Part shown: in pieces, positions 3,207 through 18,919 of the stretch
How the letters are laid out: each line of letters begins with the position of its first letter
Position numbering within the stretch: position 1 is the stretch's first letter
Assembly (NCBI GenBank): GCA_029262515.1
Contig: JAJCZH010000029.1
Location: forward strand, 1,434-65,433
Reading direction: 5' to 3'
Length of the DNA: 64,000 bases
Source: Deltaproteobacteria bacterium
Lineage (GTDB): Bacteria; Desulfobacterota; GWC2-55-46; JADFVP01
Translations under genes and position numbers: made by a program
Notes under the pieces: generated by a model
Told to the model about the DNA's origin: nothing
Seen by the model: the letters and a program-made list of their open reading frames with translations, nothing else
The model's database searches: none

Positions 3207-3216
3207 TTTTCCCCCT

Positions 3217-4693: not shown

Positions 4694-5016
4694 CCCGTCA
4701 GCTCCTCCTCATTGTTGTCCATGCGCTTGATAGCTTCGTCACGGAGGCCTCTGAGCCTCCGGAGCTTCACGATCTCAAAGCTCATGTAATTTATCGAGTC
4801 GAGCAGCTCCAGCTCCGCCTCGAGCAGGAAGTCGCGCGGGTCGGTAGGTATGTCGAGTACTCCGTTCTTTTTCTCGCCCTTAAGGAACTTGCCGAAGGCG
4901 TTAAAGAGTACTCCCATGATCTTGGCGTCGGACGGCGGACGCTCGCTCTCACCCATATCGTACTCGGCAACCAGCCGGTCCATCCGCTCTTGAGCCTCTT
5001 TACTCAGCGGCATCAC
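4690..5016 (-). CDS. Hypothetical protein
   Basis: 108 aa ORF. Overlaps the start of 5013..5651 (ATGA). Confidence 0.5.
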   Translation of the reverse strand: MMPLSKEAQERMDRLVAEYDMGESERPPSDAKIMGVLFNAFGKFLKGEKKNGVLDIPTDPRDFLLEAELELLDSINYMSFEIVKLRRLRGLRDEAIKRMDNNEEELTG

Positions 5017-6702: not shown

Positions 6703-6956
6703 GCGCAGACCTCCTTCAGGTGAAGGTTCTTGTCGAGAGGGCGCCGGCAACGCCCGTTGTGCCGGTCCTTACCGCTGCCGCGCTTATGGGCCTTTGTGTA
6801 GTCTTCGATAATACGGCCGCACCTGTCGCATGTGGCCGGATGGACCGAAGTAATCTTGACGATAAAGACCACGCCGCACGGCTTGCAGATATAGTCGTTC
6901 TCCACACGGCCGTAACGCTTAACCCTTTTCGAATCGCAGACCGGGCAACGTCTCAT
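6699..6956 (-). CDS. Zinc-ribbon small protein
   Basis: 'CPVCDS...CKPCG...CDRCG' Cys pairs. Coupled to the recombinase gene. Confidence 0.45.
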   Translation of the reverse strand: MRRCPVCDSKRVKRYGRVENDYICKPCGVVFIVKITSVHPATCDRCGRIIEDYTKAHKRGSGKDRHNGRCRRPLDKNLHLKEVCA

Positions 6957-7414
6957 GCGCCTACTCCTGCACTGACAGAACTCATTGCAGCCCGTAGGTC
7001 GGCTTTAATGGTCGGCCTAAGAAAAGCATCAACCATATGAGAGAGAGTGGCAACCTTGGAGGGGTCTTCATCACGCGCTACCTTGAGGACCTTACCTACA
7101 AGGATCCCCTCGTCGGGGCTTAACTGCAGACCTGCCGAGGCGTGAGCGGCCGGAGCGGAAAGATCGACCGGCATATTCTCCGGCGGCGTTACGCCGTCGA
7201 GGTACATCTTGCCTTCACCGGTCAAGAGCCAGTCGACTGATAGACCTGTAAGCCTTGAGAGCTTAATCACCAGGCTGGGCGGTATCGAACCACGCTTCTT
7301 ATAATTCGACATCGCTTGAGGAGTAACCCCTAGTTTTCTGGCCAGCGCCGAGTCATTCTTTAAGTGGTTGCCCCAGCGCATCCGTTCTACTATCTCCGCA
7401 TAATTCTGTTCCAT
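6953..7414 (-). CDS. CI-like HTH transcriptional repressor (phage repressor N-terminal domain)
   Basis: 'SALARKLGVTPQAMSNYKKRGSIPPSLVIKLSRLTGLSVDWLLTGEG' is a typical CI/Cro-type HTH. Confidence 0.6.
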   Translation of the reverse strand: MEQNYAEIVERMRWGNHLKNDSALARKLGVTPQAMSNYKKRGSIPPSLVIKLSRLTGLSVDWLLTGEGKMYLDGVTPPENMPVDLSAPAAHASAGLQLSPDEGILVGKVLKVARDEDPSKVATLSHMVDAFLRPTIKADLRAAMSSVSAGVGA

Positions 7415-7416
7415 AT

Positions 7417-7605
7417 CTACCTCCCGCTTGGTAGCTCTATGTGGTTATCCCCGGACACCGTGTCCGGAGTATCTGAAAAAAGTATCTTCATCTGGCCGTC
7501 TTCAGGTGCGACGGCATTCAAGAGATCAGCCGGCCTTATCTCTCCGTTAAAAAGACTGTGTACGAGTTCTCTACATGTAACCTGGTCGGTGTTCCTCACG
7601 CTCAA
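7417..7605 (-). CDS. Hypothetical small protein
   Basis: 62 aa ORF coupled to neighbouring genes. Confidence 0.3.
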   Translation of the reverse strand: MSVRNTDQVTCRELVHSLFNGEIRPADLLNAVAPEDGQMKILFSDTPDTVSGDNHIELPSGR

Positions 7606-7781
7606 GTCCTCGACCTCTTCAGCCTCTTCTTCCTGTATGCCTTTATAGCCGCTTCGGTAAAGTGTGCCGGGCGGCCCGGAATGTAGGCTATTTCCCTTGC
7701 GGACATTTTGTTCCGAAGGGTTGACGGCTTCAGCCCTAAAAGCTCAGCAGCTTCGAATGTTGTGTACAGTTTTTCAATCAT
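7602..7781 (-). CDS. Excisionase/AlpA-like HTH DNA-binding protein. ORF-track frame extends to 7841; the start 'MIEKLYTT' at 7781 is more likely.
   Basis: 'LYTTFEAAELLGLKPSTLRNKM...' resembles MerR-type excisionase HTHs. Its ATG overlaps the upstream stop as ATGA. Confidence 0.5.
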   Translation of the reverse strand: MIEKLYTTFEAAELLGLKPSTLRNKMSAREIAYIPGRPAHFTEAAIKAYRKKRLKRSRT

Positions 7782-8296
7782 CTGACCCTCTCTCCAATAA
7801 CTGCGAGCAGCCCCATAACGGCCTGTACTGCCTCCATACACTCTTTGCTGAGCTCCTTGAGCTCGGCCTTCGACACCTTGTTATCCTTGAGAACCTCGGC
7901 CAGCTTCTGGCTCGTCTCCCCGAACTCCTTGTTGTAGGTGAGAATCGCCTGCATCAACTCTTTGTCGGATGTATTGCTTGCCGGCATCTTCACCGGCGGC
8001 ATAAAACCGAAACGGGCGCATAGCCATTCAATTGGCACGTACGCCCTGTCGGGGTCGATCTTTGCAATTGTAGTTATTATGGTTTCAAGACGGTCGAGGG
8101 GATTACGGGCCCCGGACTGGTCGGGGTCGTCAATAGTTGAAGGAGGTGAGCACCACATACGGACGAGCCTACCGGAGAGATGAAGGTCATCAGCAACGAT
8201 CGTCGTATGCCGCCTTATAGTCTCATCAAGCGCCTCAAAAGATTTCCAGTACGCAAGCCCTTCTTTACTCATTGCCGATCCCCGCTTAATCTGCAA
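7778..8296 (-). CDS. Hypothetical protein
   Basis: 172 aa ORF at the head of the leftward transcription unit. Confidence 0.5.
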   Translation of the reverse strand: MQIKRGSAMSKEGLAYWKSFEALDETIRRHTTIVADDLHLSGRLVRMWCSPPSTIDDPDQSGARNPLDRLETIITTIAKIDPDRAYVPIEWLCARFGFMPPVKMPASNTSDKELMQAILTYNKEFGETSQKLAEVLKDNKVSKAELKELSKECMEAVQAVMGLLAVIGERVR

Positions 8297-8387
8297 TTGT
8301 CAGTTGCGCGGCCCTCTGCTACGATTTAGCATGGCCACCTATTTACAACCTACATGGAACCTGATAAACTCAAACTCTAAAAGAGCG

Positions 8388-8432
8388 CAGACAGGCCCGA
8401 ATAAATCTGCCCGATCTCATCGGGCCCGTCTG
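8388..8432. promoter_or_regulatory. Imperfect 13-bp inverted repeat (cagacAggcccga...tcgggcccgtctg) in a divergent intergenic region. Possible operator or structured RNA.
   Basis: 12 of 13 positions are complementary with a 19-nt spacer. Located between divergent gene starts at 8296 and 8535. Confidence 0.3.
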
Positions 8433-8534
8433 CTGGTATCGAGCACCGATCGCGTCGGTAGGTGGGGCCTGCGACCGCCACCGGGCTCAATTCGTTTAAA
8501 AACTTGTTCTGGATCTTCTATATATGGAAAGCTT

Positions 8535-8771
8535 ATGTCTCAAGATATTGAAGAGCCTTATCTTTTAAAATGTCCTAAGTGCTATACTTCGCGTTCAGGG
8601 ACAGGGTGGTCGTCAATAGATGAAAAGCGTCCCTATTGCGCAGGTTGTGGCACACGTTGGATAGCAAAATGTCCCGGTTGCGGTATATTAATCGATCCAA
8701 CATTTCACTCGAAGAAGACTGAAAAAAACTGTGTATCTTGCGGCACATCGTTCTCAGCCACGCCTACCTGA
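8535..8771 (+). CDS. Small zinc-ribbon protein. ORF-track frame 8304..8771; the likely start is 'MSQDIEEPY' at 8535.
   Basis: 'CPKCYT...CAGCGTRW...CPGCG...CVSCG' shows four CxxC pairs. Confidence 0.35.
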   Translation: MSQDIEEPYLLKCPKCYTSRSGTGWSSIDEKRPYCAGCGTRWIAKCPGCGILIDPTFHSKKTEKNCVSCGTSFSATPT

Positions 8772-8922
8772 GTTTATAGGCGCAACAAGGGGCAAACTTA
8801 GCATCAGGATCGTTCCGAAAAATCTCTTTAATTTCTTCAGGGAACTCCATGCTACAGTTTGGGCACTTATCAGGCAGTACGAACATGGCTGTTTTGTTAT
8901 TTTTAAAGTTTTCATTATTCAT
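8764..8922 (-). CDS. Small Cys-containing protein (52 aa, 'MNNENFKNNKTAMFVLPDKCPNCSMEFPEEIKEIFRNDPDAKFAPCCAYKLR'), not in the ORF track
   Basis: Its ATG overlaps the stop of 8922..9182 (TGATG). Confidence 0.3.
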   Translation of the reverse strand: MNNENFKNNKTAMFVLPDKCPNCSMEFPEEIKEIFRNDPDAKFAPCCAYKLR

Positions 8923-9182
8923 CACAGACCTTTTGTTTGATGTGTCGGAGCACCCTGAGCTTCTGAATTTGAAGCATCCAGGAGATTACGCAGTCGCTCC
9001 ACAGAAGGGTTCGGAATAACTACGTGTCTGTGTAGCTTATTGTCCCAAACTCTTAACAAGGTGCCGTCTTGGCATATTGAATCGATAAGCTCCTGTGAAG
9101 ATAAGTCTTCACGGAACCGGTCAAGATCAATAATTTGAATGTTTACTGAGATTTTTTTGTAATGACGTTTTGGTTTACTCAT
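8922..9182 (-). CDS. Hypothetical small protein in the cro position, divergent from the S24 repressor
   Basis: 86 aa ORF. Transcribed divergently from 9272..9898 across an AT-rich 90-bp region. Confidence 0.45.
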   Translation of the reverse strand: MSKPKRHYKKISVNIQIIDLDRFREDLSSQELIDSICQDGTLLRVWDNKLHRHVVIPNPSVERLRNLLDASNSEAQGAPTHQTKGL

Positions 9183-9271
9183 CGCAGGCCCCTTTATTTG
9201 ATGTGTATGGGTAGATATTAGAAGTATTTTTCTAATTTGTCAAGCATATATATAAATTATATTCTATTATT
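9183..9271. promoter_or_regulatory. AT-rich divergent promoter/operator region (cI/cro-like switch)
   Basis: A 'tatatataaattatattctattatt' tract between divergent regulator genes. Confidence 0.4.
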
Positions 9272-9898
9272 ATGAGCACAATCGGTCAAAGACTTAAAAA
9301 TACTAGAAAAAAAATTCTACAAATTTCGCGTGAGAAGTTTGTAGAAGGGCTTTCTATTTCCACAAAAACCCTTGAAAACTACGAAAACGACGGCACCTCT
9401 CCGGATGCCAACTTCTTCACCCTGCTTTGGGGGAAGTACCACGATCAGCTAAGCATGAGCGACCTCGACTGGATTATGTGGGGCAAGCGCATGGAGTACG
9501 AAGTCGCAACAACAACCCCGGTTCTGGGGCGTGTGCCTGCTGGCTTTCCGGAAAACATAGCCGAAGAGGATATACTCGAGTACATAAGCATGCCCGGAGC
9601 GCCGAAGGAGGCCTACTCGCTCATCATCGACGGTAACAGCATGGCCCCCGATATTAAAGACGGCGACTATGTCATTTTTTTGCCTGCAGAGCGCACCAGT
9701 ACAAACCCCGGCGACATAGTCGTCATCAACGACGAGTTCGGGCAATCTATGATAAAGCGCTATGTCCTGAAAGATGGTCAGCCGTACTTGAAAAGCGACA
9801 ACCCCGAGTACCCAGGCTTCGAACCAAATGAACATTACACGGTAATTGGTAAGGTTATTGATGTGTGGAGCAGAAAGAAAATAAGGAGCGCACCGTGA
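9272..9898 (+). CDS. LexA/CI-like repressor with an N-terminal HTH and a C-terminal S24 peptidase domain
   Basis: 'IDGNSMAPDI' is the catalytic Ser motif and 'MIKRYV' carries the catalytic Lys. HTH at the N-terminus. Confidence 0.75.
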   Translation: MSTIGQRLKNTRKKILQISREKFVEGLSISTKTLENYENDGTSPDANFFTLLWGKYHDQLSMSDLDWIMWGKRMEYEVATTTPVLGRVPAGFPENIAEEDILEYISMPGAPKEAYSLIIDGNSMAPDIKDGDYVIFLPAERTSTNPGDIVVINDEFGQSMIKRYVLKDGQPYLKSDNPEYPGFEPNEHYTVIGKVIDVWSRKKIRSAP

Positions 9899-10710
9899 AG
9901 AAGTTGATAATACTGCTATTCGTTCTGGCTCTGCCCGCAATGGCTGAAGCAGCATCCTATAACAAGGCATCGATGTACAACCAACATGGCTTAAGTGCTG
10001 AAGCCAAAAAGGAACTCATCAACCTGATCTACAGCAAGACTACTACTGTCGAAAAAGCAAAGGCACATTATCTTCTAGGCACCATCGCTTTTAATGAAAA
10101 TAATGTAAGAGTTGCACTCAAAACTTGGAAAGACCTTGTCCGCAAGTACCCGAACTCCCAAGAAGCTACCTTAGTTAAAGACCGCATTAAAGAACTGTCA
10201 GATATCGTAGGTGATATTAAAGCCGATACCCTTAAAAACGCTCTGGCACAGACATATTTACGACATGGAGACTTTTGGACCAAGAATAAAGCGAGCAGGT
10301 TTACTATTGACTCAAGCTGGCTACCAAAAGTTGAAATGGCGTTAAAGTGGTACGATAAGGTGATTGCTAAATTCCCAAAAACAGACGCTGCCCGCGTTGC
10401 ATATGAGTCGAAGCTAATGACCTTGCTGGGATGGAAAGATAGAGGACGTAATGCAACTTCATACGGCGTAAGAAAGAGCCTGACAGAATATATGCCTCAA
10501 TTACTCGAAACTTTCGCGGCATTTGAAAAAGACCACCCGGATGCCTCCTCTCTTCAGGCTTATCGTTATCAGATCGCACAAGCGTATTGGGACAATAAAG
10601 ACTGGGATAAAACACGTGAATGGTTAAACACGGTTATAACAAAGGCGGGTGATGCAGATAGCTTTTACAAGGACGCAGCACAAAGACGCCTTGAAAAAGT
10701 CGTGTATTAG
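9895..10710 (+). CDS. Secreted TPR-like repeat protein. GTG start overlaps the upstream stop; the ORF-track frame begins at 9865.
   Basis: Signal peptide 'KKLIILLFVLALPAMAEA'. Helical-repeat composition with 'AKAHYLLGTIAF...' and 'AQAYWDNKDWDKTREWL'. Confidence 0.55.
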   Translation: MKKLIILLFVLALPAMAEAASYNKASMYNQHGLSAEAKKELINLIYSKTTTVEKAKAHYLLGTIAFNENNVRVALKTWKDLVRKYPNSQEATLVKDRIKELSDIVGDIKADTLKNALAQTYLRHGDFWTKNKASRFTIDSSWLPKVEMALKWYDKVIAKFPKTDAARVAYESKLMTLLGWKDRGRNATSYGVRKSLTEYMPQLLETFAAFEKDHPDASSLQAYRYQIAQAYWDNKDWDKTREWLNTVITKAGDADSFYKDAAQRRLEKVVY

Positions 10711-10816
10711 CGCTGTTGAAGGAGATCTTTAATACTTCTGTACCATCGAGGCTGGTGACATGAGTATTGTTAATTTTATAAAATTGAAATAAAGAATATA
10801 AAAGGGAGGCACGTAC

Positions 10817-11230
10817 ATGCTCACCATCTTTGTATTATGGGTCGTACTCGCTGTCGTCGCTGGGATTGTCGCTAATAACAAGAACCGTAGCTCGGTAATT
10901 TGGGCCCTTCTCTGCTTCTTTCTCACCCCAATTCTGCTGCTTATACTCTTGGCCTTACCGAAGCTCGAACCCAAGGCGCCGCATCAAACCGGTAAGCTCA
11001 CGAGAAGGCAAGCATCGTCAGTCACACCTGCACCGATAATGGACGACCCGGGCGAGACTCGTAAATGCCCTTTCTGCGCCGAACAGATACTGGCCGAAGC
11101 GATAATCTGCAAGCATTGTGGCAAAGAGAGCAAGATAGAAAAAGTAGCAGAGAAGTGCTCACGCTGCGGCATCGAGGTACTTGAGGGAGCATCTGAATGT
11201 TTCAACGGTCACTCACAGGACTACTCCTGA
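10817..11230 (+). CDS. Membrane protein with a C-terminal zinc ribbon
   Basis: Two TM segments, then 'CPFCAEQ...CKHCG...CSRCG'. Strong RBS 'aagggagg' upstream. Confidence 0.5.
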   Translation: MLTIFVLWVVLAVVAGIVANNKNRSSVIWALLCFFLTPILLLILLALPKLEPKAPHQTGKLTRRQASSVTPAPIMDDPGETRKCPFCAEQILAEAIICKHCGKESKIEKVAEKCSRCGIEVLEGASECFNGHSQDYS

Positions 11231-11616
11231 TAGGGTTGCTCATTGCAGGGGGGACAGTTTTTGCCATATTGACACAGGGCGCAATTAACGCTTTCGCCGC
11301 GACCATGCACCCTGAGAAGACCTACCAGACCGCATGGTGTGACGAGCATAAAGGGGAAATGGAGTACGTCGTCTCTGGCGGATCCCGGGTTGATTGCCTG
11401 ACCGAGAAGTATGCTGTTGAGGTTGACTTTGCGCATAAGTGGCAAGAGGCGATCGGCCAGGCTCTATACTATGCGCGAAAGACCGACCGGGCCCCGGGCA
11501 TAGTTCTCATTATGGAAAAATCGGGCGACCACAAGTATCTCGGGCGGCTCTTCTATACCATCAAAGAACGAGATGAATTTATAAAGGTCTGGACCATCGG
11601 ACCAGGGGATCTATGA
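11197..11616 (+). CDS. Hypothetical exported/membrane-anchored protein
   Basis: N-terminal hydrophobic helix. Its 3' end 'KVWTIGPGDL*' is repeated as a scar at 12725-12761. Confidence 0.5.
   Translation: MFQRSLTGLLLIGLLIAGGTVFAILTQGAINAFAATMHPEKTYQTAWCDEHKGEMEYVVSGGSRVDCLTEKYAVEVDFAHKWQEAIGQALYYARKTDRAPGIVLIMEKSGDHKYLGRLFYTIKERDEFIKVWTIGPGDL
11578..11616 (+). repeat. Junction repeat copy A: 'ataaaggtctggaccatcggaccaggggatctatga', followed by the vestigial start 'atgagcattaaataa' (MSIK*) of the zinc-ribbon gene
   Basis: Near-identical to 12725-12764. The 'ggatctatga' junction recurs at 13721-13730, and a similar 'ggggagcctatgag' precedes zinc-ribbon copy 1 (12401-12420). Confidence 0.5.
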
Positions 11617-11626
11617 GCATTAAATA

Positions 11627-12112
11627 ATGCCAGTGTCTCTGGCAGTGAAAGGAGCGAGGGATTTGAAGAAGCTATTGATTCTTATAGGTGTGATATTTTT
11701 TATGGGGTGTGCGGCTGCACCTGTTCAACGCGCTGAACCTAAAACAATGGAGTTTCAGCAGCCTTTTGATAAGGTCTGGAGTGCCGCCGTCAGGATCATC
11801 ACTGTCGACAACGACCTGCCTATCCAGGTAATAGAAAAAGATTCCGGAATTATTACCACCGATTGGGTTACTTATGAACGCCCTGTTAAAGGCATGGGTG
11901 AGGCCTTCATGATATCCAGCTCAAATACTACTAACCCGAACATTCAGATACGTTACAAATTGAATATTAGTATTGAGAAGACCGACAACGGAACAGAGGT
12001 TTATATCCGCGATCATGTAGAGCGGTTCAGTGGTATGACTTGGAGTGTTACTAATGAACGCCCCCCGGCTCTTGAGAATATCGCGGCGGACCTGGCGGCT
12101 AGACTAAAATAG
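11627..12112 (+). CDS. Putative lipoprotein. Alternative TTG start at 11663 with RBS 'gaaaggag'.
   Basis: 'LLILIGVIFFMGC' is a lipobox-like signal peptide. Confidence 0.5.
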   Translation: MPVSLAVKGARDLKKLLILIGVIFFMGCAAAPVQRAEPKTMEFQQPFDKVWSAAVRIITVDNDLPIQVIEKDSGIITTDWVTYERPVKGMGEAFMISSSNTTNPNIQIRYKLNISIEKTDNGTEVYIRDHVERFSGMTWSVTNERPPALENIAADLAARLK

Positions 12113-12123
12113 GAGATGGACCT

Positions 12124-12399
12124 TTGGCTCTTATACAATGTCCCGAATGCAATAAAGATATCTCTGACCAAGCGGTAGCCTGCCCCCAATGCGCCCACCC
12201 AATAAAAGCCGTAACCATTGAGGCGACCGGAAAGCGATGGAAGGGTATACAGCTTATCTGTGCCCTATTTATTATAATCGGCGCTTTCTGGGCAGCGAGC
12301 AATACTCAGGGGGGGCCAGCGTTCGGTGGTATTCTTGTAGCGGTGGGGCTTATCGGTTTTATAGTAGCCCGACTGGGCGCATGGTGGGGGCACGGTTGA
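12124..12399 (+). CDS. Zinc-ribbon membrane protein (TTG start)
   Basis: 'CPECNK...CPQCAHP' then two TM helices. RBS 'aggag' 8 nt upstream. Confidence 0.45.
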   Translation: MALIQCPECNKDISDQAVACPQCAHPIKAVTIEATGKRWKGIQLICALFIIIGAFWAASNTQGGPAFGGILVAVGLIGFIVARLGAWWGHG

Positions 12400-12414
12400 T
12401 ATTATGGGGAGCCT

Positions 12415-12564
12415 ATGAGTATTAAAACCATAGACCTGACCCTCAAATGCCCGTCGTGCTCTCACGAGTGGACTGAGCACCTCGAAGTTGGAGAGATTCT
12501 CTTACGTCCACCGTGCCCGAAGTGTACCGACCAGCCAGTTTATATGCTGAAGATTAAAGCTTGA
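12415..12564 (+). CDS. Small zinc-ribbon protein, paralog copy 1 (49 aa, MSIKTIDLTLKCPSCSHEW...CPKCTDQPVYMLKIKA); not in the ORF track
   Basis: CxxC-x17-CxxC. Has two paralogs at 13727 and 15504 (about 70-80% nt identity by eye). Confidence 0.5.
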   Translation: MSIKTIDLTLKCPSCSHEWTEHLEVGEILLRPPCPKCTDQPVYMLKIKA

Positions 12565-12628
12565 GGCCGCCGATGAGACGCCTCCTTATAACAATAAAGG
12601 CAGTAACCATGCTTAGGGAGCTCAGAAC

Positions 12629-12733
12629 ATGAAGAGGTTGCTGGTCTTATTTTTTGTTCTGACTCTGCCCGCACTGGTTGTGGCCGGCGATTCTCCCGTT
12701 ATTAAGCGTTCAATCTTTGGACTCTACCTATAA
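12629..12733 (+). pseudogene. Truncated remnant (34 codons) of a secreted-protein gene paralogous to the 5' end of 9895..10710
   Basis: 'atgaagaggttgctggtcttattttttgttctgactctgcccgca' is homologous to 'gtgaagaagttgataatactgctattcgttctggctctgcccgca'. The ORF stops inside the junction repeat. Confidence 0.4.
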
Positions 12734-12764
12734 AGGTCTGGACTATCACCCGTGAGGATCTATG
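12725..12764 (+). repeat. Junction repeat copy B: 'ataaaggtctggactatcacccgtgaggatctatga', with the ATG now used by the 300-aa cargo gene
   Basis: Matches the 3' end of 11197..11616 plus the zinc-ribbon start context. Confidence 0.5.
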
Positions 12765-13664
12765 AAATCTATAAATGATCTAAATAGACAACTCGTACAG
12801 ATTAAACAAATTTTTCTTCATGGAAAGAAGCATGCTATTAGTAACAACGCCCTCGACAGGCTTCACTCTATAATTTCTTTAGATACAGCTATAGAATACT
12901 TCCTTGTTACTATCATCCACCAAGCTGATATAAAATTACCCCGCAAGGATGAGAACAACTTTGATTCAATCTTCGAAAACGCAAATATAGGGCTTAAAAA
13001 AATTAGAAATAATTCCATCGAACTACCCCATAAAACCGTCATTACAAGTAGAGTACATAAAGTACGAAACGGAGCTTGTCACAGCGGCAATATACCTAGC
13101 ACTGAAAGCATCAATACAGCCTTAATCCACACCGAAACATTTCTTAATGAAACCTTCAAGCTTTGCTTCAATAAGGCTTTTGGTGAGGTTTTTCTTGCCG
13201 ACATGATTGAGCACCAAGAAATCTGCAAGTATTTCAAAAAGGCAGAAGTAGCCATGGAAGAGAATGATCTTGAAAGTTTAACTGTTGAACTCGCAACTGG
13301 CATCCAAATTTTTAAGAATAAAGTCACCTCAGAACTACCAGGCTGGCTAAAGCAAATGGAAAGAACAGACGTCTCCACCACACTTGATGATAACCAAAGG
13401 ATACAAACTGCTCTGGGAGACATAGTAGAGTCGGTTTGCCTCCTTCGAAATTTTACAGTTTTCATTAGCCTTGGATTTACATTCCACGATTTGACACTTT
13501 TTATAGCAAAATTCCCAATTATTAATTTGAGTGTTAGCGGTAATATTCTTGGTGTACATCACGGCCGCATAAAACCCACTATGAGTGAGTGCGTTCACCT
13601 CATGAATGCCTTTTACAACATGATACTTTCATATCAGTCCAGCAATAAATCTATATGCCCATAG
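12762..13664 (+). CDS. AT-rich cargo gene 1: hypothetical 300-aa protein with a candidate HEPN-type Rx4H motif ('RNGACH'). Putative Abi-like RNase.
   Basis: Low-GC coding sequence. 'VHKVRNGACHSGNIP' at about residue 100 fits the R-[N]-x3-H HEPN signature. No other motif recognized. Confidence 0.5.
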   Translation: MKSINDLNRQLVQIKQIFLHGKKHAISNNALDRLHSIISLDTAIEYFLVTIIHQADIKLPRKDENNFDSIFENANIGLKKIRNNSIELPHKTVITSRVHKVRNGACHSGNIPSTESINTALIHTETFLNETFKLCFNKAFGEVFLADMIEHQEICKYFKKAEVAMEENDLESLTVELATGIQIFKNKVTSELPGWLKQMERTDVSTTLDDNQRIQTALGDIVESVCLLRNFTVFISLGFTFHDLTLFIAKFPIINLSVSGNILGVHHGRIKPTMSECVHLMNAFYNMILSYQSSNKSICP

Positions 13665-13726
13665 AAGATAATCAAAGAAACCTAGGCTTACCTCATGTAT
13701 CGAAACACTTTCATCCCTGAGGATCT

Positions 13727-13876
13727 ATGAAAGCCAAAACCATCGACCTGAACCTTAAATGCCCGGCCTGCTCTCACGAGTGGGCGGAGCGCCTCGATAC
13801 CGAGGGCGTATACCTCAACCCCGTCTGCCCGGAGTGTACCGAGCAGCCGGTCTACATTCTAAACATTACGGTCTAA
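13727..13876 (+). CDS. Small zinc-ribbon protein, paralog copy 2 (49 aa, MKAKTIDLNLKCPACSHEW...CPECTEQPVYILNITV); not in the ORF track
   Basis: Preceded by the 'cctgaggatctATG' junction. Its 3' half is nearly identical to copy 3. Confidence 0.5.
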   Translation: MKAKTIDLNLKCPACSHEWAERLDTEGVYLNPVCPECTEQPVYILNITV

Positions 13877-13970
13877 ACCAAGGTTTCAATCCAAGTAGGT
13901 TGCGAATAAGTGTTGTGTTAGAGGACACGTCGCATTGTATTCAAGGCACACTAGAAATCAAACGAGGTGA

Positions 13971-15431
13971 TTGATGGAATATTTTAAGCTTGGAGACATA
14001 TTTTTAGGTTTGAATGACGGAAAGAAGGAGGCATTAATTAGAAGTGATTTTGAAAGATTTTTTTATGATCATGAAAACATTCATGATCAAGTTATGAAGC
14101 CTCAAAATTTTTTGATCCTAGGTAAAAAGGGTTCTGGGAAAACAATTTTGGCTGAATATATAAATAAAACTTCTAAAAAGGATCCGCTGTGGTTCAGCGA
14201 GATAAGATCTTATAAAGATTTTAAATTTCATGAATTAGTCCAACTAAAAAGCGATGATATCAAACCTAATGAATATATTTCAATATGGGAATGGGTAATT
14301 CTATTAGATTTGGCAAGGCTTATACTACAAGATCAAGGTATCGACAATGTTGAGCTACGCAATAAATTAGAAAGTTTTTATACAAATAATTATTATTCAA
14401 TTGATATTGACTCTGGAAGGGTTGTTGAAATTACCAAAGAAAACCAAATAACTGGTACCATTCCAACTTCAATCGTAAATTTATCAGCGGGGCATGCCTC
14501 TAAATCAACAAAAGTTTCTGGAAGTTATTTTAATTATTTAGAAGGTTTGAGAGAAGTTGTGCTTGGCTTGCTAGAAGGATCGAGCAGTAAATACACCGTT
14601 TTTTATGATGAACTAGATGATCGCTTTAGAGATAATGAGTTTTATAAAGATGGTATTATCAGTTTGATAAAAGCAGCTGATAAGGTTAATTTGGAACTAC
14701 TGAGAAGAAATGTCGATGCCAAAATATCAATTTTGCTAAGGTCGGACATTTTCTACATACTTAATGACCCCGATCTTAATAAGATAAAAATGGATAATTC
14801 CTTGGTAATCGATTGGGGTAATATTGTGTCACAACAATCTCCTCTTTTTAAGTTGATTCTATCAAAGATCAGGACGTCTCTACCAGCCATAGAAAAGAAA
14901 AGTGATGATCAACTTTTTTCTTTATTGTTCCCTCAAGGAATTAAAGGTATTGATCCCGAGAGGTATATACTTGAAAGGACTCTCTTCCGCCCTCGGGATG
15001 TAATAACAATGTTGAACCTAATAATAAAAAAATATCCGAAGACTGGTTATTTTGGCTGGAAGGGTTTTATAGATATTAAGAAAGCTTATTCAGAGTATTT
15101 TTTTCAAGAAATAAGGAATGAGTTGTGTGGACATTTGAGCGATAAAGAAATAGATCAATCAACATTAATGATTAAACAATATAATAAGCACTTTTTTTAT
15201 TTTGATGAAATCAAGGAGTACCACAAGAAAAATATCGCAATCTATCCAGATATAAATTTAGAGAAAATTTTAAGATTATTTTTCAAATTTAATATAATAG
15301 GAAATACGTGGTTCAACAAATATAAAAATAGAAACTACTATTGTTGGGCTTATCGGGATAATAAGGCGGAAGTCGACTTTAAGAAGAAGTTTGTCATTCA
15401 TCTAGGCTTAAGAGAAGAGCTATCACTATAA
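13971..15431 (+). CDS. AT-rich cargo gene 2: KAP-family-like P-loop NTPase (putative defense/abortive-infection ATPase)
   Basis: Walker A 'LGKKGSGKT' near residue 52. Walker B 'VFYDELDD' about 160 aa later, which is the long A-B spacing typical of KAP NTPases. 'FRPRDVITMLNLI' resembles the KAP 'PRxIKRxxN' motif. Very low GC. Confidence 0.6.
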   Translation: MMEYFKLGDIFLGLNDGKKEALIRSDFERFFYDHENIHDQVMKPQNFLILGKKGSGKTILAEYINKTSKKDPLWFSEIRSYKDFKFHELVQLKSDDIKPNEYISIWEWVILLDLARLILQDQGIDNVELRNKLESFYTNNYYSIDIDSGRVVEITKENQITGTIPTSIVNLSAGHASKSTKVSGSYFNYLEGLREVVLGLLEGSSSKYTVFYDELDDRFRDNEFYKDGIISLIKAADKVNLELLRRNVDAKISILLRSDIFYILNDPDLNKIKMDNSLVIDWGNIVSQQSPLFKLILSKIRTSLPAIEKKSDDQLFSLLFPQGIKGIDPERYILERTLFRPRDVITMLNLIIKKYPKTGYFGWKGFIDIKKAYSEYFFQEIRNELCGHLSDKEIDQSTLMIKQYNKHFFYFDEIKEYHKKNIAIYPDINLEKILRLFFKFNIIGNTWFNKYKNRNYYCWAYRDNKAEVDFKKKFVIHLGLREELSL

Positions 15432-15503
15432 ACCCTCATTAGTAACGCTGTGATGGCCTGCCGTACAGCTCTTCATTCGGGCGGCCATCTACCCAAGGAA
15501 TTT

Positions 15504-15647
15504 ATGAAGACCATCGACCTGACCCTAAAATACCCGAAGTGCTCTCACGAGTGGATAGTGCGCCTCGATGCCGAGGAGGTCTACCTCAACCCCGTCTGTC
15601 CAGAGTGTACCGAGCAGCCGGTCCTTATCCTTAACATCACGGTCTAA
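15504..15647 (+). CDS. Small zinc-ribbon protein, paralog copy 3 (47 aa, MKTIDLTLKYPKCSHEW...CPECTEQPVLILNITV). The first Cys is replaced by Tyr.
   Basis: Inside ORF-track entry 15450..15647. Homologous to copies 1 and 2. Confidence 0.45.
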   Translation: MKTIDLTLKYPKCSHEWIVRLDAEEVYLNPVCPECTEQPVLILNITV

Positions 15648-15751
15648 GCCAGAGAACAGCATTCAAACCTCATTATCCAAATTTAGCATGATCAAGAGTA
15701 CTTCCTGTAGTCCGCACATTCCAACCACGCTTCCACATGCAACACTTCTAC

Positions 15752-15796
15752 CGGAAATAAACAAAGCCCACCAGTCATTACGACCAGTGGGCTTCA
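15752..15796 (-). terminator. Hairpin ('aagcccac'/'gtgggctt', 8-bp stem) with a T-rich tail on the minus strand. Likely terminator for the PEP-CTERM gene.
   Basis: Lies between convergent genes. The minus-strand read gives a stem-loop then 'tttgtttatttcc'. Confidence 0.35.
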
Positions 15797-15817
15797 AAAC
15801 CTTCTGATTTAAAACTC

Positions 15818-16471
15818 TTACTTCTTAAACCTTCTTCTCACAAACCCAAGACCTGCAAGGCCACTTCCGAGAAGGAGGAGGGTTGAGGGTTCTGGGACTG
15901 AGGCAAGAGTAATCGTAGCATCAACTGCCGTCCATCCGTGTTCGGTGTTACCTCCGTTATTTGTAAGCAGAAAGTCAACATGGTTCCCCGCAACTAGATC
16001 AAGGTTGAGCAGAGAGAAAGATGCTGTATCCAAATAGGTAGTAATGTAATCGCTAAACACAACTACACCGTTGATGGCGACATAAACGCGGTTATTAACG
16101 CTTCGGTTGTCAGTCCCAGTGAAAGCTCCTGTCACGTCATAGTTACCCGCCGTTGAAGCGGTCCAGCGCACCACTGGAAAACCATTCGAATTGTCTTTCG
16201 CCCACAAATGCGGACCATAAACAGCCCACTGGTCTGCAATACTCGGACCACCGTGCCCGTAGTTGCCCAGAAACCAACCGTCTGACCAACGTACGTTCAT
16301 AACATCTATCGTGCTAGCAGTCACGGTGGTCGTTCTTCCATAAGTCCAGTCGCCATTTGGGTTGGTAGTAGTCGAGTAGTCGCCTGAGATTGAGGCGGCG
16401 TTTGCGCTCTGAGCCAGAGTAAATCCGAAACAGAGTACCAGGGTTAAAATAGCGATATACATTTTTTTCAT
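15818..16471 (-). CDS. PEP-CTERM sorting-domain secreted protein
   Basis: N-terminal signal peptide. C-terminal 'VPEPSTLLLLGSGLAGLGFVRRRFKK' is the canonical PEP-CTERM exosortase signal (PEP motif, TM helix, Arg cluster). Confidence 0.7.
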   Translation of the reverse strand: MKKMYIAILTLVLCFGFTLAQSANAASISGDYSTTTNPNGDWTYGRTTTVTASTIDVMNVRWSDGWFLGNYGHGGPSIADQWAVYGPHLWAKDNSNGFPVVRWTASTAGNYDVTGAFTGTDNRSVNNRVYVAINGVVVFSDYITTYLDTASFSLLNLDLVAGNHVDFLLTNNGGNTEHGWTAVDATITLASVPEPSTLLLLGSGLAGLGFVRRRFKK

Positions 16472-16849
16472 AATATTCTCCTAAACATCGAATTATATAC
16501 TTATATTAAATTGTACTTGATGGGTTACTTAATTAAAAATGCAAGATGCATGCCACTACCTCTTCGCTGCCGTAACCATCTGTTTTGCTTACTAAAGAGC
16601 GTTAGGTGGCGAACTTAGTGGTTCTATATGGGGCAACAAAGTGTAAAGAAACATAACGAGCGAAATTACATAAAGAGCACAGTTCTCAAATAAGACCTTA
16701 TACTCCAGCAGGTTATGGAGTTTTCAATATGTGTAAAAATATTTGACAATGCTGGAAGAATTTACATAAAAGAGGCTTGTTAGATAGATAAGGAAGCGAT
16801 CGTGCAATATTTCTTTTGGTAATCATGTAGATTGAGCCTACCCTTAAAG

Positions 16850-16874
16850 TGCGTAGTAGTAGGTGTACTACGCA
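16850..16874. promoter_or_regulatory. Perfect 9-bp stem hairpin (tgcgtagta-gtaggtg-tactacgca) about 55 nt downstream of the integrase stop
   Basis: Read directly from the sequence. No T-tail follows, so it may be an operator or arm-type site rather than a terminator. Confidence 0.25.
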
Positions 16875-16928
16875 TCTTACACCCATCCTACAGCAAGCAC
16901 TTCCTACTGATCATGCCCCACCTACCCT

Positions 16929-17993
16929 TCACAGCAAATTGATCTCGTCATGCGTCTCTTCTATCGGTATATGAGCGTAATGCTTTGTCGTTACATCCAC
17001 GCTTGAATGGCCGAGGTACTGGCTCACAAGATAGATGGATACTCCCCTCCGGAGAAGGTGGCTACCGAAAGTCTCACGAAACGTCTGTATGGTGAGCCCC
17101 TCAACATCAATTCCGGCAACCTTGCCTATGGTCTTCAACTTACGGTTCAGGTTATTAGCTCTCGGATCCCCGTCTTTTGTAGGAAAGCACCACTTGCTAT
17201 CAGAATCCATTGCCAGGAACAGCTCACGCAGCTCCCTGTGCAGTGGAATCTTCCTCTCCTGATGATCCTTGATCTCATTCTCTTCTTTGCTCCGTACCAG
17301 CAGGTAGCCCTCATCGAAGTTAATGTCTCTCGGCTCCAGGTGTATTAACTCCCCGAACCTCAGGCCGGCGTAGTAAGCTGTGGCGAAGAGCGGGTAAAAG
17401 TCGGGATCCCGCTTCTTGATTGTTTTGAGCAAGGTGCTTATGTCTTTTAATGAAAGGTCCCTGAAGAGCTTCTTTGTAGGCTTGTCTGCCCGGACTTCCT
17501 TCGCAGGGTTGTCCGGTATATAACCCCTCTTCATGGCATAGCCCAGCACGGCCCTTAACGCCCTCAGGTCTGCACGCGCGCCGCCCGGGGTTTTCTTTCG
17601 TGCTTTTCCACCTTCTTTCTTGGCTCTACTATAAAAGCCCTCTTTTCTCTTATTGTAAAAGATCTCTACGGTATCGATATCTATTTCGGATATAAGCTCG
17701 ATACCCTCGTCTTCACAGAAATCAACAAAGATGCGCTTGCGCGTCCGGTACCATCGTTTTGTCGCTTCTCGAGGCGCTCGCTTCTCAATATATGCATCAA
17801 AAACCTCAGCGACCGACTTTTTTAATATGAGATGTTTGGACCGGTGCTTCTGTCTGCCCTCGAGTTCCTCGTAGTCCCGCAATAGGGCCGAAGCTGCGGC
17901 CTTTGCCGTTACCCTCAAAGATTTCTGAGCAGACACGCCGCCGTCCACATAGCCGACCCACCAGATTTTACCGCGCTTATAGATGTAAGCCAT
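16929..17993 (-). CDS. Tyrosine site-specific integrase (phage integrase family)
   Basis: C-terminal catalytic region '...HLLRRGVSIYLVSQYLGHSSVDVTTKHYAHI' carries the R...H-x-x-R...Y pattern. It lies directly next to the tRNA gene. Confidence 0.85.
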   Translation of the reverse strand: MAYIYKRGKIWWVGYVDGGVSAQKSLRVTAKAAASALLRDYEELEGRQKHRSKHLILKKSVAEVFDAYIEKRAPREATKRWYRTRKRIFVDFCEDEGIELISEIDIDTVEIFYNKRKEGFYSRAKKEGGKARKKTPGGARADLRALRAVLGYAMKRGYIPDNPAKEVRADKPTKKLFRDLSLKDISTLLKTIKKRDPDFYPLFATAYYAGLRFGELIHLEPRDINFDEGYLLVRSKEENEIKDHQERKIPLHRELRELFLAMDSDSKWCFPTKDGDPRANNLNRKLKTIGKVAGIDVEGLTIQTFRETFGSHLLRRGVSIYLVSQYLGHSSVDVTTKHYAHIPIEETHDEINLL

Positions 17994-18140
17994 AAATGTA
18001 AGTCTATTGTAAGTTAGAAAGTGAAACTAAATGAGATTGAGTGAAGTATAGTGAACTTACAGAGAAAAGTCAAGAGGGGTGCTTAATGTAAAAACCCCTT
18101 GATAATACTAAAAAATTAGCATTACCAAGGGGTTATATTA

Positions 18141-18217
18141 TGGCTCCCGGGGAGGGATTCGAACCCCCGACAAGGTGATTAACAGTCACCCGCTCTGCCA
18201 GCTGAGCTACCCGGGAA
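18141..18217 (-). tRNA. tRNA-Asn (anticodon GTT)
   Basis: Reverse complement 'TCCCGGGTAGCTCAGCTGGCAGAGCGGGTGACTGTTAATCACC...GGTTCGAATCCCTCCCCGGGAGCCA'. 7-bp acceptor stem, anticodon loop 'CTGTTAA', T-loop 'GGTTCGAATCC', 3' CCA. Confidence 0.8.
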
Positions 18218-18394
18218 TAGCAAGCAATAGGCTAAAATGTTAAGGAGACATATTATACTTACGAGTACTTCAAGTCAAGAATTTTATAGCACCTTTACGA
18301 AGCATCGTTAGAGTATCGGTTGCAAAGAGAGGGGACTTGATGCCATTTCCGCTCTTTTTTCCAGACTCGTCACGCCCTCTTATACTGCCAAACC

Positions 18395-18919
18395 CTATTT
18401 CCAGATTCCGACCCCGGCCTGCTTCGCTTTATCCTCCAGACCTAGCAGCTCTTCTCGTTTCTCCGTGCCGCATGGCGGTATCAAGAGCGTTTTCGCAAAG
18501 CCCTCTTCGAGCAATAGCCCGTTAACGAAAAATCCGTCCACATAGACCCAGCCGAGTGTCCTTCCGTACTTGTCCTTCGGCTCCCCTCTACAGACTCGCA
18601 ACTCGATCTCTTTACCCTTTACAAGCTCGGCATTTCTCTCTCTTGCGGCCTCATATAACGGCTCGCCGCGCTCAGGCGTATCTATTCCTATATACCTTAC
18701 TATCAGACCGCCGGAGGTCCTTACGGTATCGCCATCATATACAAAAGCCACGGTCTGCTTACCGCCCTCTTCGGGTTTCATCGCCGTGGCCATGCCCTCT
18801 GCCAGATCGAAAGGCGCTGCAACAAAGAGCGTAACAAACAGCACAAACGTACCCATAACGATTGCAAAGAGCGCTCTACTCCCACGGATTCTTCTTATCA
18901 TAAATATAATTGGAAGCAC
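18395..18919 (-). CDS. Thermonuclease (staphylococcal nuclease, SNase-like) family protein with an N-terminal membrane anchor
   Basis: 'VYDGDTV...YIGIDTPE' matches the SNase catalytic core. Confidence 0.7.
   Translation of the reverse strand: MLPIIFMIRRIRGSRALFAIVMGTFVLFVTLFVAAPFDLAEGMATAMKPEEGGKQTVAFVYDGDTVRTSGGLIVRYIGIDTPERGEPLYEAARERNAELVKGKEIELRVCRGEPKDKYGRTLGWVYVDGFFVNGLLLEEGFAKTLLIPPCGTEKREELLGLEDKAKQAGVGIWK

Follow-up and report, generated by a model that had tools for sequence, protein, structure and literature searches.

The AT-rich gene array analysed here is best read as a lysogenic-conversion or defence locus of a prophage, in which two AT-rich genes were inserted independently among old zinc-finger paralogs native to the element; a probability of roughly 60% can be given to this reading. 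The interleaving of cargo genes with zinc-finger genes would then record local history rather than a new gene-capture system. One cargo gene belongs to a known family, FunZ, while the HEPN-domain protein encoded by the other is new.

Organisation and base composition of the array

The array occupies part of a 64,000-nucleotide stretch of DNA (the window) and consists of five open reading frames (ORFs) on the + strand: zinc-finger copy 1 (12415-12564; 49 aa, CPSC...CPKC), cargo 1 (12762-13664; 300 aa, an orphan protein with a HEPN-like N-terminal domain), zinc-finger copy 2 (13727-13876; 49 aa, CPAC...CPEC), cargo 2 (13971-15431; 486 aa from a TTG codon, a FunZ/Sll1717-family AAA+ ATPase) and zinc-finger copy 3 (15504-15647; 47 aa). 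The database entry for cargo 2 begins at the ATG at 13974 and comprises 485 aa. All five ORFs described in an earlier, sequence-only reading are thus present where it placed them. The Logan read-level contig L042, an independent assembly, is 100% identical to the window over 12062-16104, and the array is therefore not an assembly artefact.

Both cargo genes are AT-rich, with a GC content of 37.4% for cargo 1 (GC3 37%) and 31.2% for cargo 2 (GC3 29%), where the window averages 49.7%; the AT-rich run quoted previously lies at 14386-14412. The zinc-finger copies have 49-56% GC, and their GC3 of 56-77% (76% in copy 2) falls inside the range of the element and the host, compared with 29-37% in the cargo genes. 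In the windowed GC profile that had been proposed as a check, the GC steps fall at the ends of the cargo ORFs. The claim that all flanking DNA exceeds 50% GC was too strong, since nearby stretches (9001-9400 and 16401-16800) drop to 35-44%. As compositional outliers, the two cargo genes are consistent with the horizontal acquisition suggested at first sight.

The host element

The array does lie in an integrase/primase element next to a tRNA, as had been proposed. The integration site is flanked by a tRNA-Asn (GTT) gene (18141..18216, - strand; ARAGORN, Rfam tRNA 65.9 bits), and a tyrosine integrase with XerA/XerD-type matches (1.8e-27) is encoded at 16929..17993 (- strand). A DnaG-type primase of 348 aa without a helicase domain is encoded at 991-2037 (- strand), and the replication module as a whole (991-4372) is far from cargo 2. 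Other genes of the element encode CI-like, CII-like and SSB-like proteins and a serine recombinase. The left end of the element is beyond the window, and neither Ogr/Delta nor any other P4 marker was found in the ORFs scanned.

Upstream of the array, an S24/LexA-like repressor with HTH and peptidase domains (9272..9898, + strand; NCBIfam LexA 2.8e-12, with UmuD-type S24 matches) is followed by five accessory genes (9865..12399), all on the + strand. These encode a TPR lipoprotein (9865-10710), a protein with a transmembrane segment and a zinc ribbon (10817-11230), a 139-aa secreted protein designated X (11197-11616), a 161-aa lipoprotein (11627-12112) and a 91-aa protein with a zinc ribbon and a transmembrane segment (12124-12399). 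The five genes are native to the element (GC3 44-59%) and show Pfam TPR, Zn_Ribbon_1 and NlpB-like matches as well as matches to PHROG families of unknown function. No terminator-like site was detected on the + strand between the repressor gene and position 15762, where a strong hairpin with a 13-16 bp stem (15762..15796) separates convergent genes; it likely terminates transcription from both sides and marks the end of the accessory unit. The genes from the repressor (9272) through zinc-finger copy 3 would thus form a single + strand operon. Between the array and the integrase gene, a protein with a PEP-CTERM sorting signal is encoded on the - strand (15818..16471; TIGR02595, 28.5 bits against a cutoff of 16).

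The locus resembles the hotspots of temperate phages and satellites, such as the TO and Z regions of P2 and those of P4 type, in its AT-rich acquired genes and its accessory position by an integrase and a tRNA (PMC3091744), but the element cannot be assigned with confidence to the P2 or P4 type. No homologous islands with a different number of zinc-finger copies, or showing a recurrent hotspot position, were retrieved.

The zinc-finger genes are old paralogs

The triplication of the small gene is real. The three ORFs form one 145-nt direct-repeat family with 69-83% nucleotide and 59-81% amino acid identity; each copy matches the family HMM with an E-value of about 1e-30, while nothing elsewhere in the window scores better than 0.056, which places the family far beyond chance. 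With dN/dS values of 0.23-0.31 and dS values of 0.5-1.2, the copies are old coding paralogs under purifying selection, and these values rule out a recent duplication or a non-coding repeat as their origin. Copy 1 is the most diverged, with 59% amino acid identity to copy 2 and a dS of about 1.1-1.2. All three ORFs are intact and carry Shine-Dalgarno-like sequences, and the tRNA was the only match of an Rfam scan. That misassembly or chance ORFs could account for the triplication is accordingly a negligible prospect: besides the identity of contig L042, the 17-31% nucleotide divergence between copies makes collapse or duplication in assembly impossible, and both the HMM scores and the signal of purifying selection are clear. 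Public annotation includes copy 2 only, and copy 1 is absent from the protein collection.

All three copies had initially been described as zinc ribbons. The cysteine set is complete in copies 1 and 2; copy 3 reads KYPKC, its first Cys being replaced by Tyr (TGC to TAC), so that the CxxC...CxxC set is incomplete. The copies share the CxxC-x-H/W-E-W...CPxC pattern of DUF4379 (PF14311), to which they score 23.9 (copy 2), 20.9 and 17.0 bits, near but under the Pfam gathering score of 24.5 (copy 1 matching weakly, E 4.2e-4), whereas their close relative P0004 reaches 25.3 bits. They differ from DUF4379 in a match limited to positions 28-55 of the 56-position model, its second half, and in standing alone as proteins of 47-49 aa, instead of forming repeated modules in larger proteins such as P0005. 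They are probably minimal treble-clef, DUF4379-like zinc fingers native to the element, which may serve it as small nucleic-acid-binding or regulatory proteins. The retention of three copies under purifying selection suggests that they do something, which would be easier to explain if they were tied to neighbouring genes; this counts against the preferred reading.

The family is extremely rare: a set of 1.84 billion representatives contains just three relatives, a close ortholog and two distant ones. All three are single-copy and without AT-rich cargo, the orthologs adjoining a sensor kinase or a 58-aa ORF, so that the search for the zinc-finger ORF beside variable cargo elsewhere, which had been recommended, yielded no recurrence. 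With so few relatives to compare, and with ORFs of this size often missed in annotation (as are two of the three copies in the window), the missing co-occurrence is weaker evidence than the counts imply.

Junctions and the history of the locus

Remnants of older genes are preserved between the ORFs. A decayed gene lies between zinc-finger copy 1 and cargo 1 (12629..12765, + strand; direct repeats D3 and D5, tblastx self-comparison). Its first part, a signal-peptide stub of 34 aa (12629-12733), is similar to the N-terminal end of the TPR lipoprotein, and its second part, 'IKVWTITREDL*' (12730-12765), is the C-terminal remnant of a gene X paralog, the stop codon of which overlaps the ATG of cargo 1. 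In a self-comparison of 10.5 kb, the chance expectation of these repeats is about 1e-5 to 1e-2. The X remnant recurs, with a ribosome-binding site and 'ATGAAA', at 13707..13739 (+ strand; D6 and D4); this second copy is identical to 12742-12774 at 27 of 33 positions, with a chance expectation of 6e-4 to 6e-2. The two copies of this junction repeat bracket cargo 1 and provide the start of zinc-finger copy 2.

The gene remnants and junction repeats exceed chance. They point to the duplication of a segment, its decay and the insertion of single ORFs, and we infer that the events occurred in that order. The whole array would be hosted by the accessory ('moron'), lysogeny-side end of a temperate element integrated at tRNA-Asn. 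An accessory block ending in a zinc-finger gene would have been segmentally duplicated, and the second block would have decayed to the signal-peptide stub and the gene X remnant. Later, solo AT-rich ORFs, the FunZ-family ATPase gene and the HEPN gene, would have been inserted independently at gene junctions.

An alternative is that the zinc-finger gene acts as a recombination scaffold, a protein-coding analogue of attC that provides the homology for capturing cargo from related elements or from excised circles of zinc finger plus cargo, by Campbell-type or unequal crossover. The copies indeed bracket each cargo gene, and the repetition does not extend beyond the ORF. Moreover, copy 2, copy 3 and the external ortholog (P0004, locus L007) are roughly equidistant, at 82-84% nucleotide identity, as expected if they came from different element lineages and not from duplication in situ. 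The flanks of copy 3 speak against such a scaffold. The resident zinc-finger unit (15461..15666, + strand) extends from 43 nt before copy 3 to 19 nt after it and is orthologous to a locus in L007-L009 where the gene is single-copy (blastn, 206 nt aligned at 82% identity); on this alignment copy 3 is the positional ortholog of that locus. Since both orthologous flanks are kept, the junction with cargo 2 falls outside copy 3, and cargo 2 did not enter by crossover within the zinc-finger gene. The repeat found at both ends of cargo 1 is the gene X remnant with its ribosome-binding site, not the zinc finger, and no mosaic pattern of breakpoints is evident. In addition, copies of 69-83% identity are a poor substrate for homologous recombination, and the FunZ loci found elsewhere, described below, have no zinc-finger gene and lose homology at the FunZ ORF. 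The scaffold is therefore an improbable explanation.

The array also recalls an integron cassette array in its same-orientation, apparently promoterless ORFs, its repeated separator and the nearby tyrosine recombinase. It differs in that the repeat is a translated, selected gene and not an attC hairpin, and no inverted repeats common to the four spacers were found. The integrase is 1.3 kb away on the opposite strand, beyond another gene, and scores far under the integron-integrase cutoffs (47 bits against 265 for TIGR02249; 29 against 435 for NF011946). The integron comparison was rejected on the missing attC-like repeats and these scores.

Cargo 2 is a FunZ-family ATPase

Cargo 2 had been taken for an unrecognised, KAP-like NTPase. 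It proves to belong, over its full length, to NCBIfam NF047389 ('P-loop ATPase, Sll1717 family'; E 1.6e-87, 294.5 bits against a cutoff of 75), its residues 13-484 aligning with positions 2-454 of the 454-position model, and it matches phrog_13260 at 3e-76 (PHROG). Pfam KAP_NTPase gave no match at E-values up to 1, although 'KAP' appears in some UniRef names of relatives. The Walker A motif GKKGSGKT starts at residue 51 (nt 14121-14144), the Walker B motif VFYDE at residue 210 and RPRD at residue 340; K53, G56, K57, D213, D216, R257 and R340-D343 are invariant across alignments of 26 and 36 sequences. The best Foldseek matches of the AF2 model (pLDDT 88.9) are ORC/Cdc6, SSO1545 and BrxC, and the model shows an AAA+ ATPase of ORC/Cdc6 type whose C-terminus is winged-helix-like; the KAP assignment was dropped on both counts.

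The same family includes Fun(Z) of phage P2 (209.3 bits on NF047389), so that one member of the trio, which as a whole had not been recognised as a named defence system, has a named relative. P2 Fun(Z) is a named abortive-infection gene that has been used experimentally; it aborts infections by T5 and T-even phages by an unknown mechanism (PMC8594841). The two proteins align end to end (BLASTP E 4e-10 over residues 35-486, 20% identity), are both full-length NF047389 members and keep Walker A, Walker B and RPRD. Each is encoded by a single, strongly AT-rich gene in the non-essential variable region of a temperate element. They differ in that identity is 20%, the host here is not an enterobacterium, the element is not P2-like and cargo 2 lies near the integrase/repressor end, whereas the P2 gene lies between tail genes. 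By analogy at this identity, cargo 2 may confer a phage-exclusion phenotype like that of P2 Fun(Z).

About 28 distinct FunZ loci (three further loci being near-duplicates), including those of the three closest relatives of cargo 2, were examined. All are solitary AT-rich genes, scattered singly over unrelated chromosomal and prophage contexts, and none has a zinc-finger neighbour. The homologs have 27-45% GC (27-33% in closer relatives), below flanks of 38-58% in every locus measured; P2 fun(Z) has 33% against 51% in its surroundings. The loci share no common boundary sequence, homology ending at the ends of the FunZ ORF.

Cargo 1 and the predicted roles of the cargo genes

A HEPN motif had been noted in cargo 1, and this holds: RNGACH (Rx4H; R102-H107, nt 13065-13082) lies in an N-terminal HEPN-like domain (about residues 30-135), modelled at low confidence (mean pLDDT 48, two sequences) as a four-helix up-and-down bundle of HEPN type. 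The C-terminal half is helical and uncharacterised. The family has two known members, and the motif R102-N-G-A-C-H107 is also present in the sole relative, thin evidence of conservation from two sequences. Cargo 1 has no Pfam, NCBIfam, PADLOC or PHROG family at E-values up to 1, including any curated HEPN profile, and no PDB sequence match at E-values up to 10. PADLOC has no model for either cargo gene. In structural comparison the HEPN domain comes closest to toxins and to Abi or CRISPR RNases, and cargo 1 is a putative RNase with an Rx4H site. It differs from HEPN toxins and Abi proteins (HepT/MNT, AbiV, the HEPN domain of AbiA, and the HEPN of Csm6/Csx1) in its lack of a HEPN profile match, in having neither MNT nor another known antitoxin nearby and in its extra C-terminal region of ~165 residues.

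HEPN toxins are usually restrained by a partner, as in HEPN/MNT systems, and the structural matches of cargo 1 are such toxins. Each zinc-finger copy could serve the cargo gene next to it as cognate regulator, antitoxin or sensor-adaptor, or the zinc finger, HEPN protein and ATPase could form one defence system. The three intact, selected ORFs with their Shine-Dalgarno-like sequences are in line with this, as are the shared strand and transcription unit and the presence of a copy before each cargo gene. Such a partnership is nonetheless doubtful, about as much so as the scaffold. No zinc finger accompanies any of the FunZ loci, and P2 Fun(Z) is active as a cloned single gene (annotation; PMC8594841). 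The cargo and zinc-finger genes are separated by spacers of 62-197 nt, with no overlap or tight coupling, and the decayed gene lies in the one that follows copy 1. No partner gene follows copy 3, which also lacks one zinc ligand; the zinc-finger orthologs are single-copy without cargo, and the 240 nt of sequence downstream of the sole cargo 1 relative contain no zinc-finger ORF. A type II toxin-antitoxin pair with the zinc finger as antitoxin was rejected on these gaps and on the missing co-occurrence at the FunZ loci and at the cargo 1 relative. The earlier idea that the repeated gene punctuates the cargo as partner, regulator or scaffold is thus not borne out by its single-copy relatives or by the FunZ loci; as far as the available data go, this is the result that the earlier reading had named as refuting it.

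Under the preferred reading of a defence locus with independently inserted genes, both cargo genes would have anti-phage activity and would most likely work in the lysogen separately from each other, each as a stand-alone gene for abortive infection or exclusion. The FunZ-family ATPase could be a nucleotide-dependent switch that senses a phage-derived nucleic-acid or protein cue, and the HEPN protein, when activated, would cut RNA. A somewhat less probable possibility than either the scaffold or the partnership is that the AT-rich genes serve the element itself, through addiction or stabilisation, ORC-like replication control or RNA processing, AT-richness being a family trait. The mechanism of FunZ is indeed unknown (PMC8594841), the fold of cargo 2 is that of replication-initiator ATPases, PADLOC models neither gene, and the FunZ family is AT-rich in every host examined, which could reflect selection and not recent acquisition. 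Against a role outside defence, phage exclusion has been demonstrated for the family prototype P2 Fun(Z), and the single scattering of homologs over unrelated contexts is typical of mobile defence genes. Cargo 2 is also distant from the replication module, at the end of the element that holds non-essential accessory genes, and the structural neighbours of the cargo 1 HEPN domain belong to toxins, Abi proteins or CRISPR RNases.

Architecture and Genetic Context of the Locus

The locus is best read as a lysogenic-conversion/defence region of a prophage, which carries a distant homolog of P2 Fun(Z) and a new HEPN candidate. Its main value lies in the fold assignment of the FunZ family, in the HEPN orphan and in the caution that it brings to apparent cassette arrays. 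The array itself (12400-15660) is composed of five + strand ORFs, found exactly where the sequence-only reading had placed them, i.e., three zinc-finger genes (copies 1, 2 and 3 at 12415-12564, 13727-13876 and 15504-15647) interleaved with a 300-aa ORF (cargo 1, 12762-13664) and a 486-aa ORF (cargo 2, 13971-15431). That reading described a repeated zinc-ribbon gene punctuating foreign cargo genes. The foreign acquisition of the cargo, the HEPN assignment and the defence-type character of the locus have stood, while the system of punctuating genes is not supported.

Since a Logan read-level contig reproduces window 12062-16104 at 100% identity, an assembly artefact is excluded as the source of the array. 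The composition of the cargo genes is consistent with foreign acquisition: the GC content is 37.4% (GC3 37%) for cargo 1 and 31.2% (GC3 29%) for cargo 2 against a window mean of 49.7%, and the steps in GC fall at the cargo ORF boundaries. The zinc-finger copies (GC 49-56%, GC3 56-77%) lie inside the range of the element core and host genes. The flanking DNA is not above 50% GC throughout, as had been claimed, several nearby stretches being at 35-44%.

The array is set in that end of a temperate phage or satellite-like element which holds its early/regulatory and accessory genes. A tyrosine integrase gene (16929-17993, minus strand) adjoins a tRNA-Asn gene (18141-18216, minus strand), and a PEP-CTERM protein gene (15818-16471, minus strand) lies between the array and the integrase. 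To the left of the array, the element encodes an S24/LexA-like repressor (9272-9898, + strand), CII-like (7778-8296) and CI-like (6953-7414) regulators and a DnaG-type primase (991-2037), the last three on the minus strand, as well as a serine recombinase and an SSB-like protein. No repeat of the tRNA-Asn 3′ end that could serve as an att copy was found inside the window, and the left boundary of the element lies beyond it. In IMG/VR, probes made from the integrase, the TPR lipoprotein and the primase retrieved distant integrases or nothing, and no homologous islands.

The array makes up the far end of a string of + strand genes, in which the repressor is followed by five small membrane, lipoprotein or zinc-ribbon genes and which closes at a strong hairpin (15762-15796), the region's only convincing terminator. 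This hairpin excepted, a promoter and terminator scan gave counts no higher than those of shuffled sequences. We infer that the string forms one transcription unit; in the lysogen, the accessory genes would probably be co-expressed with the repressor gene or expressed downstream of it.

Cargo 2 Belongs to the Fun(Z) Family

Over its full length, cargo 2 matches the NCBIfam model NF047389 ("P-loop ATPase, Sll1717 family"), with 294 bits for a cutoff of 75 (E 1.6e-87), and it also matches phrog_13260. It was previously taken for a KAP-like NTPase, a reading that gives way to this full-length match; no match to Pfam KAP_NTPase was obtained. Several of its relatives bear the UniRef name "FunZ protein", and P2 Fun(Z) itself scores 209 bits against NF047389. 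From residue 35 to its C-terminus, cargo 2 aligns with P2 Fun(Z) at 20% identity (E 4e-10). The P2 record is annotated "cloned gene blocks growth of T5; lysogenic conversion", and the Z/fun region is among the horizontally variable loci of P2-like phages (PMC3091744). No papers were found under the name Sll1717.

P2 Fun(Z) comes from enterobacterial P2-like phages, whereas cargo 2 is carried by an unrelated temperate element in a PEP-CTERM-bearing bacterium, so this abortive-infection family now reaches well past its enterobacterial members. The P2 Fun(Z) protein (L014 15675-17261) matched no model of PADLOC-DB v2.0.0, in which P2 Old and Tin do have models. This lack of a Fun(Z) model accounts for the mere weak mad8 match given by cargo 2, and FunZ-family genes will escape PADLOC v2. 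Fun(Z) itself was discovered decades ago.

An AlphaFold2 model of cargo 2 built from 36 sequences is confident (pLDDT 88.9, pTM 0.87). In the PDB, the model comes closest to Orc1/Cdc6 from archaea and eukaryotes, to the archaeal AAA+ protein SSO1545 and to BrxC, with TnsC, RdrA and Avs3 at lower ranks. Cargo 2 is accordingly modelled as an AAA+ switch of the ORC/Cdc6 type, which has a helical lid, carries a winged-helix-like domain at its C-terminus and shows no recognisable effector domain. The Walker A, Walker B and RPRD motifs are invariant across the FunZ family. The protein would most likely act as a nucleotide-dependent sensor or switch that recognises a phage cue and aborts the infection, as P2 Fun(Z) does, and the model offers a useful start for work on mechanism.

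The FunZ loci inspected (about 28 distinct and three near-duplicates) include 21 from IMG/VR, chromosomal and metagenome contig loci, such as that of Geobacter sp. FeAm09, and the three closest relatives (60-64% identity). In all of them, the FunZ gene is a solitary low-GC island between flanks of 38-58% GC, its own GC being 27-33% in the closer relatives and up to 45% in distant viral ones. For the three closest relatives, similarity to the window ends at the ORF ends, and no boundary motif is common to FunZ genes. Directly upstream of the Geobacter sp. FeAm09 homolog, a gene near smpB and a PEP-CTERM gene (L041 4414-4821) encodes a protein with DUF2726 and a Top1-type zinc ribbon, which is unrelated to the zinc-finger family of the array. 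At the closest relative (63% identity), a 169-aa ORF located 25 nt upstream (L049 50-559) holds the Rx4H-like motif LRHNIGH; neither a Pfam match nor any detectable resemblance to cargo 1 was obtained for it, so that HEPN-FunZ pairing is not established as a recurrent feature.

Cargo 1 Is an Orphan HEPN Candidate

Cargo 1 has no match among curated profiles, nor, with E values of up to 10 allowed, among PDB sequences. A search of 5.8 billion clusters brought up a single relative, which is 61% identical and lies on a metagenome contig of 1 kb; a metagenome scan added one marginal fragment. The structural model, built from two sequences, has a pLDDT of 48 overall and of 55-77 over residues 30-135. 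Foldseek gave no significant match, the sole compact matches being HEPN toxins. Because of these compact matches and of the R102-N-G-A-C-H107 motif, which is invariant in the single relative, the HEPN reading is accepted with moderate confidence. The C-terminal 165 residues lie outside the HEPN-like region. The protein would most likely serve as an abortive effector of the RNase type, regulated by a C-terminal domain of its own. This near-orphan is a candidate for a new stand-alone Abi gene.

The Zinc-Finger Paralogs

The three small ORFs constitute one 145-nt direct-repeat family (69-83% nucleotide identity), whose products are 59-81% identical and share the invariant blocks KTIDL, CSHEW and CPxCT-QPV. 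The family HMM retrieves each copy at E ~1e-30. Nei-Gojobori estimates among the copies (dN/dS 0.23-0.31, dS 0.48-1.2) indicate old protein-coding paralogs under purifying selection, as opposed to a recent duplication or a non-coding repeat. An Rfam scan of 8000-18500 returned nothing except the tRNA. The relative P0004 passes the Pfam gathering score of DUF4379, a probable treble-clef zinc finger, and window copy 2 falls 0.6 bit short of it. Comparison with P2 Ogr and the PDB revealed generic CxxC similarity only (PhnA-like, anti-TRAP and TFIIS proteins). Copy 2 is the only one of the three present in the public protein set.

The element is unusually rich in other small zinc-ribbon or Cys-rich ORFs, at 10817-11230, 12124-12399 and 8535-8771 on the + strand and at 5013-5651, 6699-6956 and 8764-8925 on the minus strand. 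The last of these (53 aa) weakly matches the family HMM, with the best other score in the 64-kb window (E 0.056).

Rarity of the Zinc-Finger Family

Only three real relatives came out of an index-free profile search that covered 1.84 billion representatives, P0004 being close and P0006 and P0007 distant. Two further matches, a multi-repeat DUF4379 protein and a T4-baseplate-type protein, are not family. A word-indexed protein search returned the query alone and missed an existing relative, so that it was not exhaustive for a protein of this length. A DNA pattern scan of 185,579 species genomes yielded no true relative, its six matches being unrelated T4-baseplate-type zinc ribbons, eRF1 and long ORFs, and the same type of scan gave no matches in IMG/VR.

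P0004 (47 aa, all four Cys kept) is encoded by a single-copy gene on three metagenome contigs (L007-L009), between IS3 remnants and a PAS/histidine-kinase gene, and no AT-rich cargo is present at these loci. The P0007 gene is also single-copy; its neighbour is a 58-aa ORF, and it lies near the integrase/AlpA end of a different integrative element. Conversely, no family member occurs in the available flanks of the FunZ loci, nor in the 240 nt downstream of the sole cargo 1 relative. The zinc-finger gene is thus rare, and neither cargo type has it as a conserved neighbour in the loci available. On current data, by the standard of refutation that the sequence-only reading set itself, a repeated gene punctuating cargo as a system is not supported. 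One of the contigs, L007, also bears dispersed relics (9569-9665 and 16209-16634) that resemble parts of a related element and are not arranged colinearly with the window: a 98-nt stretch resembling window 2992-3088, beside IS3 remnants, and a CI-like gene ~55% identical to that of the window.

The zinc finger could also be a cognate partner, tied functionally to its cargo gene. Very few loci were available for comparison and small ORFs often go unannotated, which leaves some room for such a tie; however, nothing in the present data connects the zinc finger to cargo function, and we regard a partnership as improbable. The paralogs are most likely small nucleic-acid-binding proteins of the element itself.

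Origin of the Array

Copy 3, together with 43 nt upstream and 19 nt downstream, corresponds to the single-copy locus of L007-L009 (82% over 206 nt, 15461-15666), and these common flanks identify it as the resident, orthologous copy. This positional ortholog is also the copy that lacks a zinc ligand, its first Cys being replaced by Tyr (TGC to TAC), which hints that its function may have passed to copy 2 or that it drifts towards a pseudogene.

A decayed gene separates copy 1 from cargo 1. It comprises a 34-aa signal-peptide stub (12629-12733) that resembles the N-terminus of the TPR lipoprotein at 9865, and a remnant, IKVWTITREDL* (12730-12765), whose source is a paralog of the gene at 11197-11616 (139 aa). 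The 33-nt stretch that closes the remnant, RBS and ATGAAA included, is repeated at 13707-13739 (27/33 identical), so that one junction brackets cargo 1, and cargo 1 and copy 2 both take their start codons from it. These remnant and junction repeats are beyond chance (expectation 1e-5 to 6e-2 in a 10.5-kb self-comparison). In the simplest history, an accessory block ending in the zinc-finger gene would have been duplicated, the second block would then have decayed with its selected zinc-finger copy spared, and two AT-rich solo ORFs would have inserted at gene junctions.

Alternatively, the zinc-finger gene might be a recombination scaffold that provides homology for cargo capture. The cargo 2 junction lies outside copy 3, whose flanks are those of L007-L009, and this argues against capture by crossover within the repeat; even with the latitude left by so few relatives and so many unannotated small ORFs, a scaffold has a low probability. 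It is likewise doubtful that the treble-clef zinc-finger gene is an unrecognised modular element of defence loci, whether as a scaffold or as an effector-required partner. In the former case, it could supply protein-coding homology by which related elements exchange and stack anti-phage genes; in the latter, it could be a small regulator, antitoxin or adaptor needed by every newly gained effector. Such a module would have been overlooked so far because ORFs of 47-49 aa are seldom annotated. The array also differs from an integron, as the tyrosine integrase of the element is not of integron type, and no attC-like hairpins or inverted repeats are shared across the spacers.

With duplication, decay and moron insertion as its probable history, the triplicated gene is a curiosity, in that these events can mimic a cassette array, a useful caution in hotspot mining.

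Other Features of the Element

At the window's left edge, next to the primase gene, a third AT-rich outlier (8-808, + strand) encodes 266 aa with one hydrophobic segment (GC 40%, GC3 30%) and has no Pfam match; it may be another acquired accessory gene on the other side of the element. The gene of the PEP-CTERM (exosortase-sorted) surface protein may also serve lysogenic conversion, and its presence within the island is a clue to host biology. Between the integrase gene and tRNA-Asn, a near-perfect hairpin with 19-nt arms (18093-18134) could be a tRNA terminator or part of the attachment region. Finally, a conserved start context with its RBS, of the form GGGGTGAGTGATGC..., is common to three minus-strand genes, those of the primase (2021-2044), a 108-aa ORF (5000-5023) and the CI-like regulator (7401-7424).
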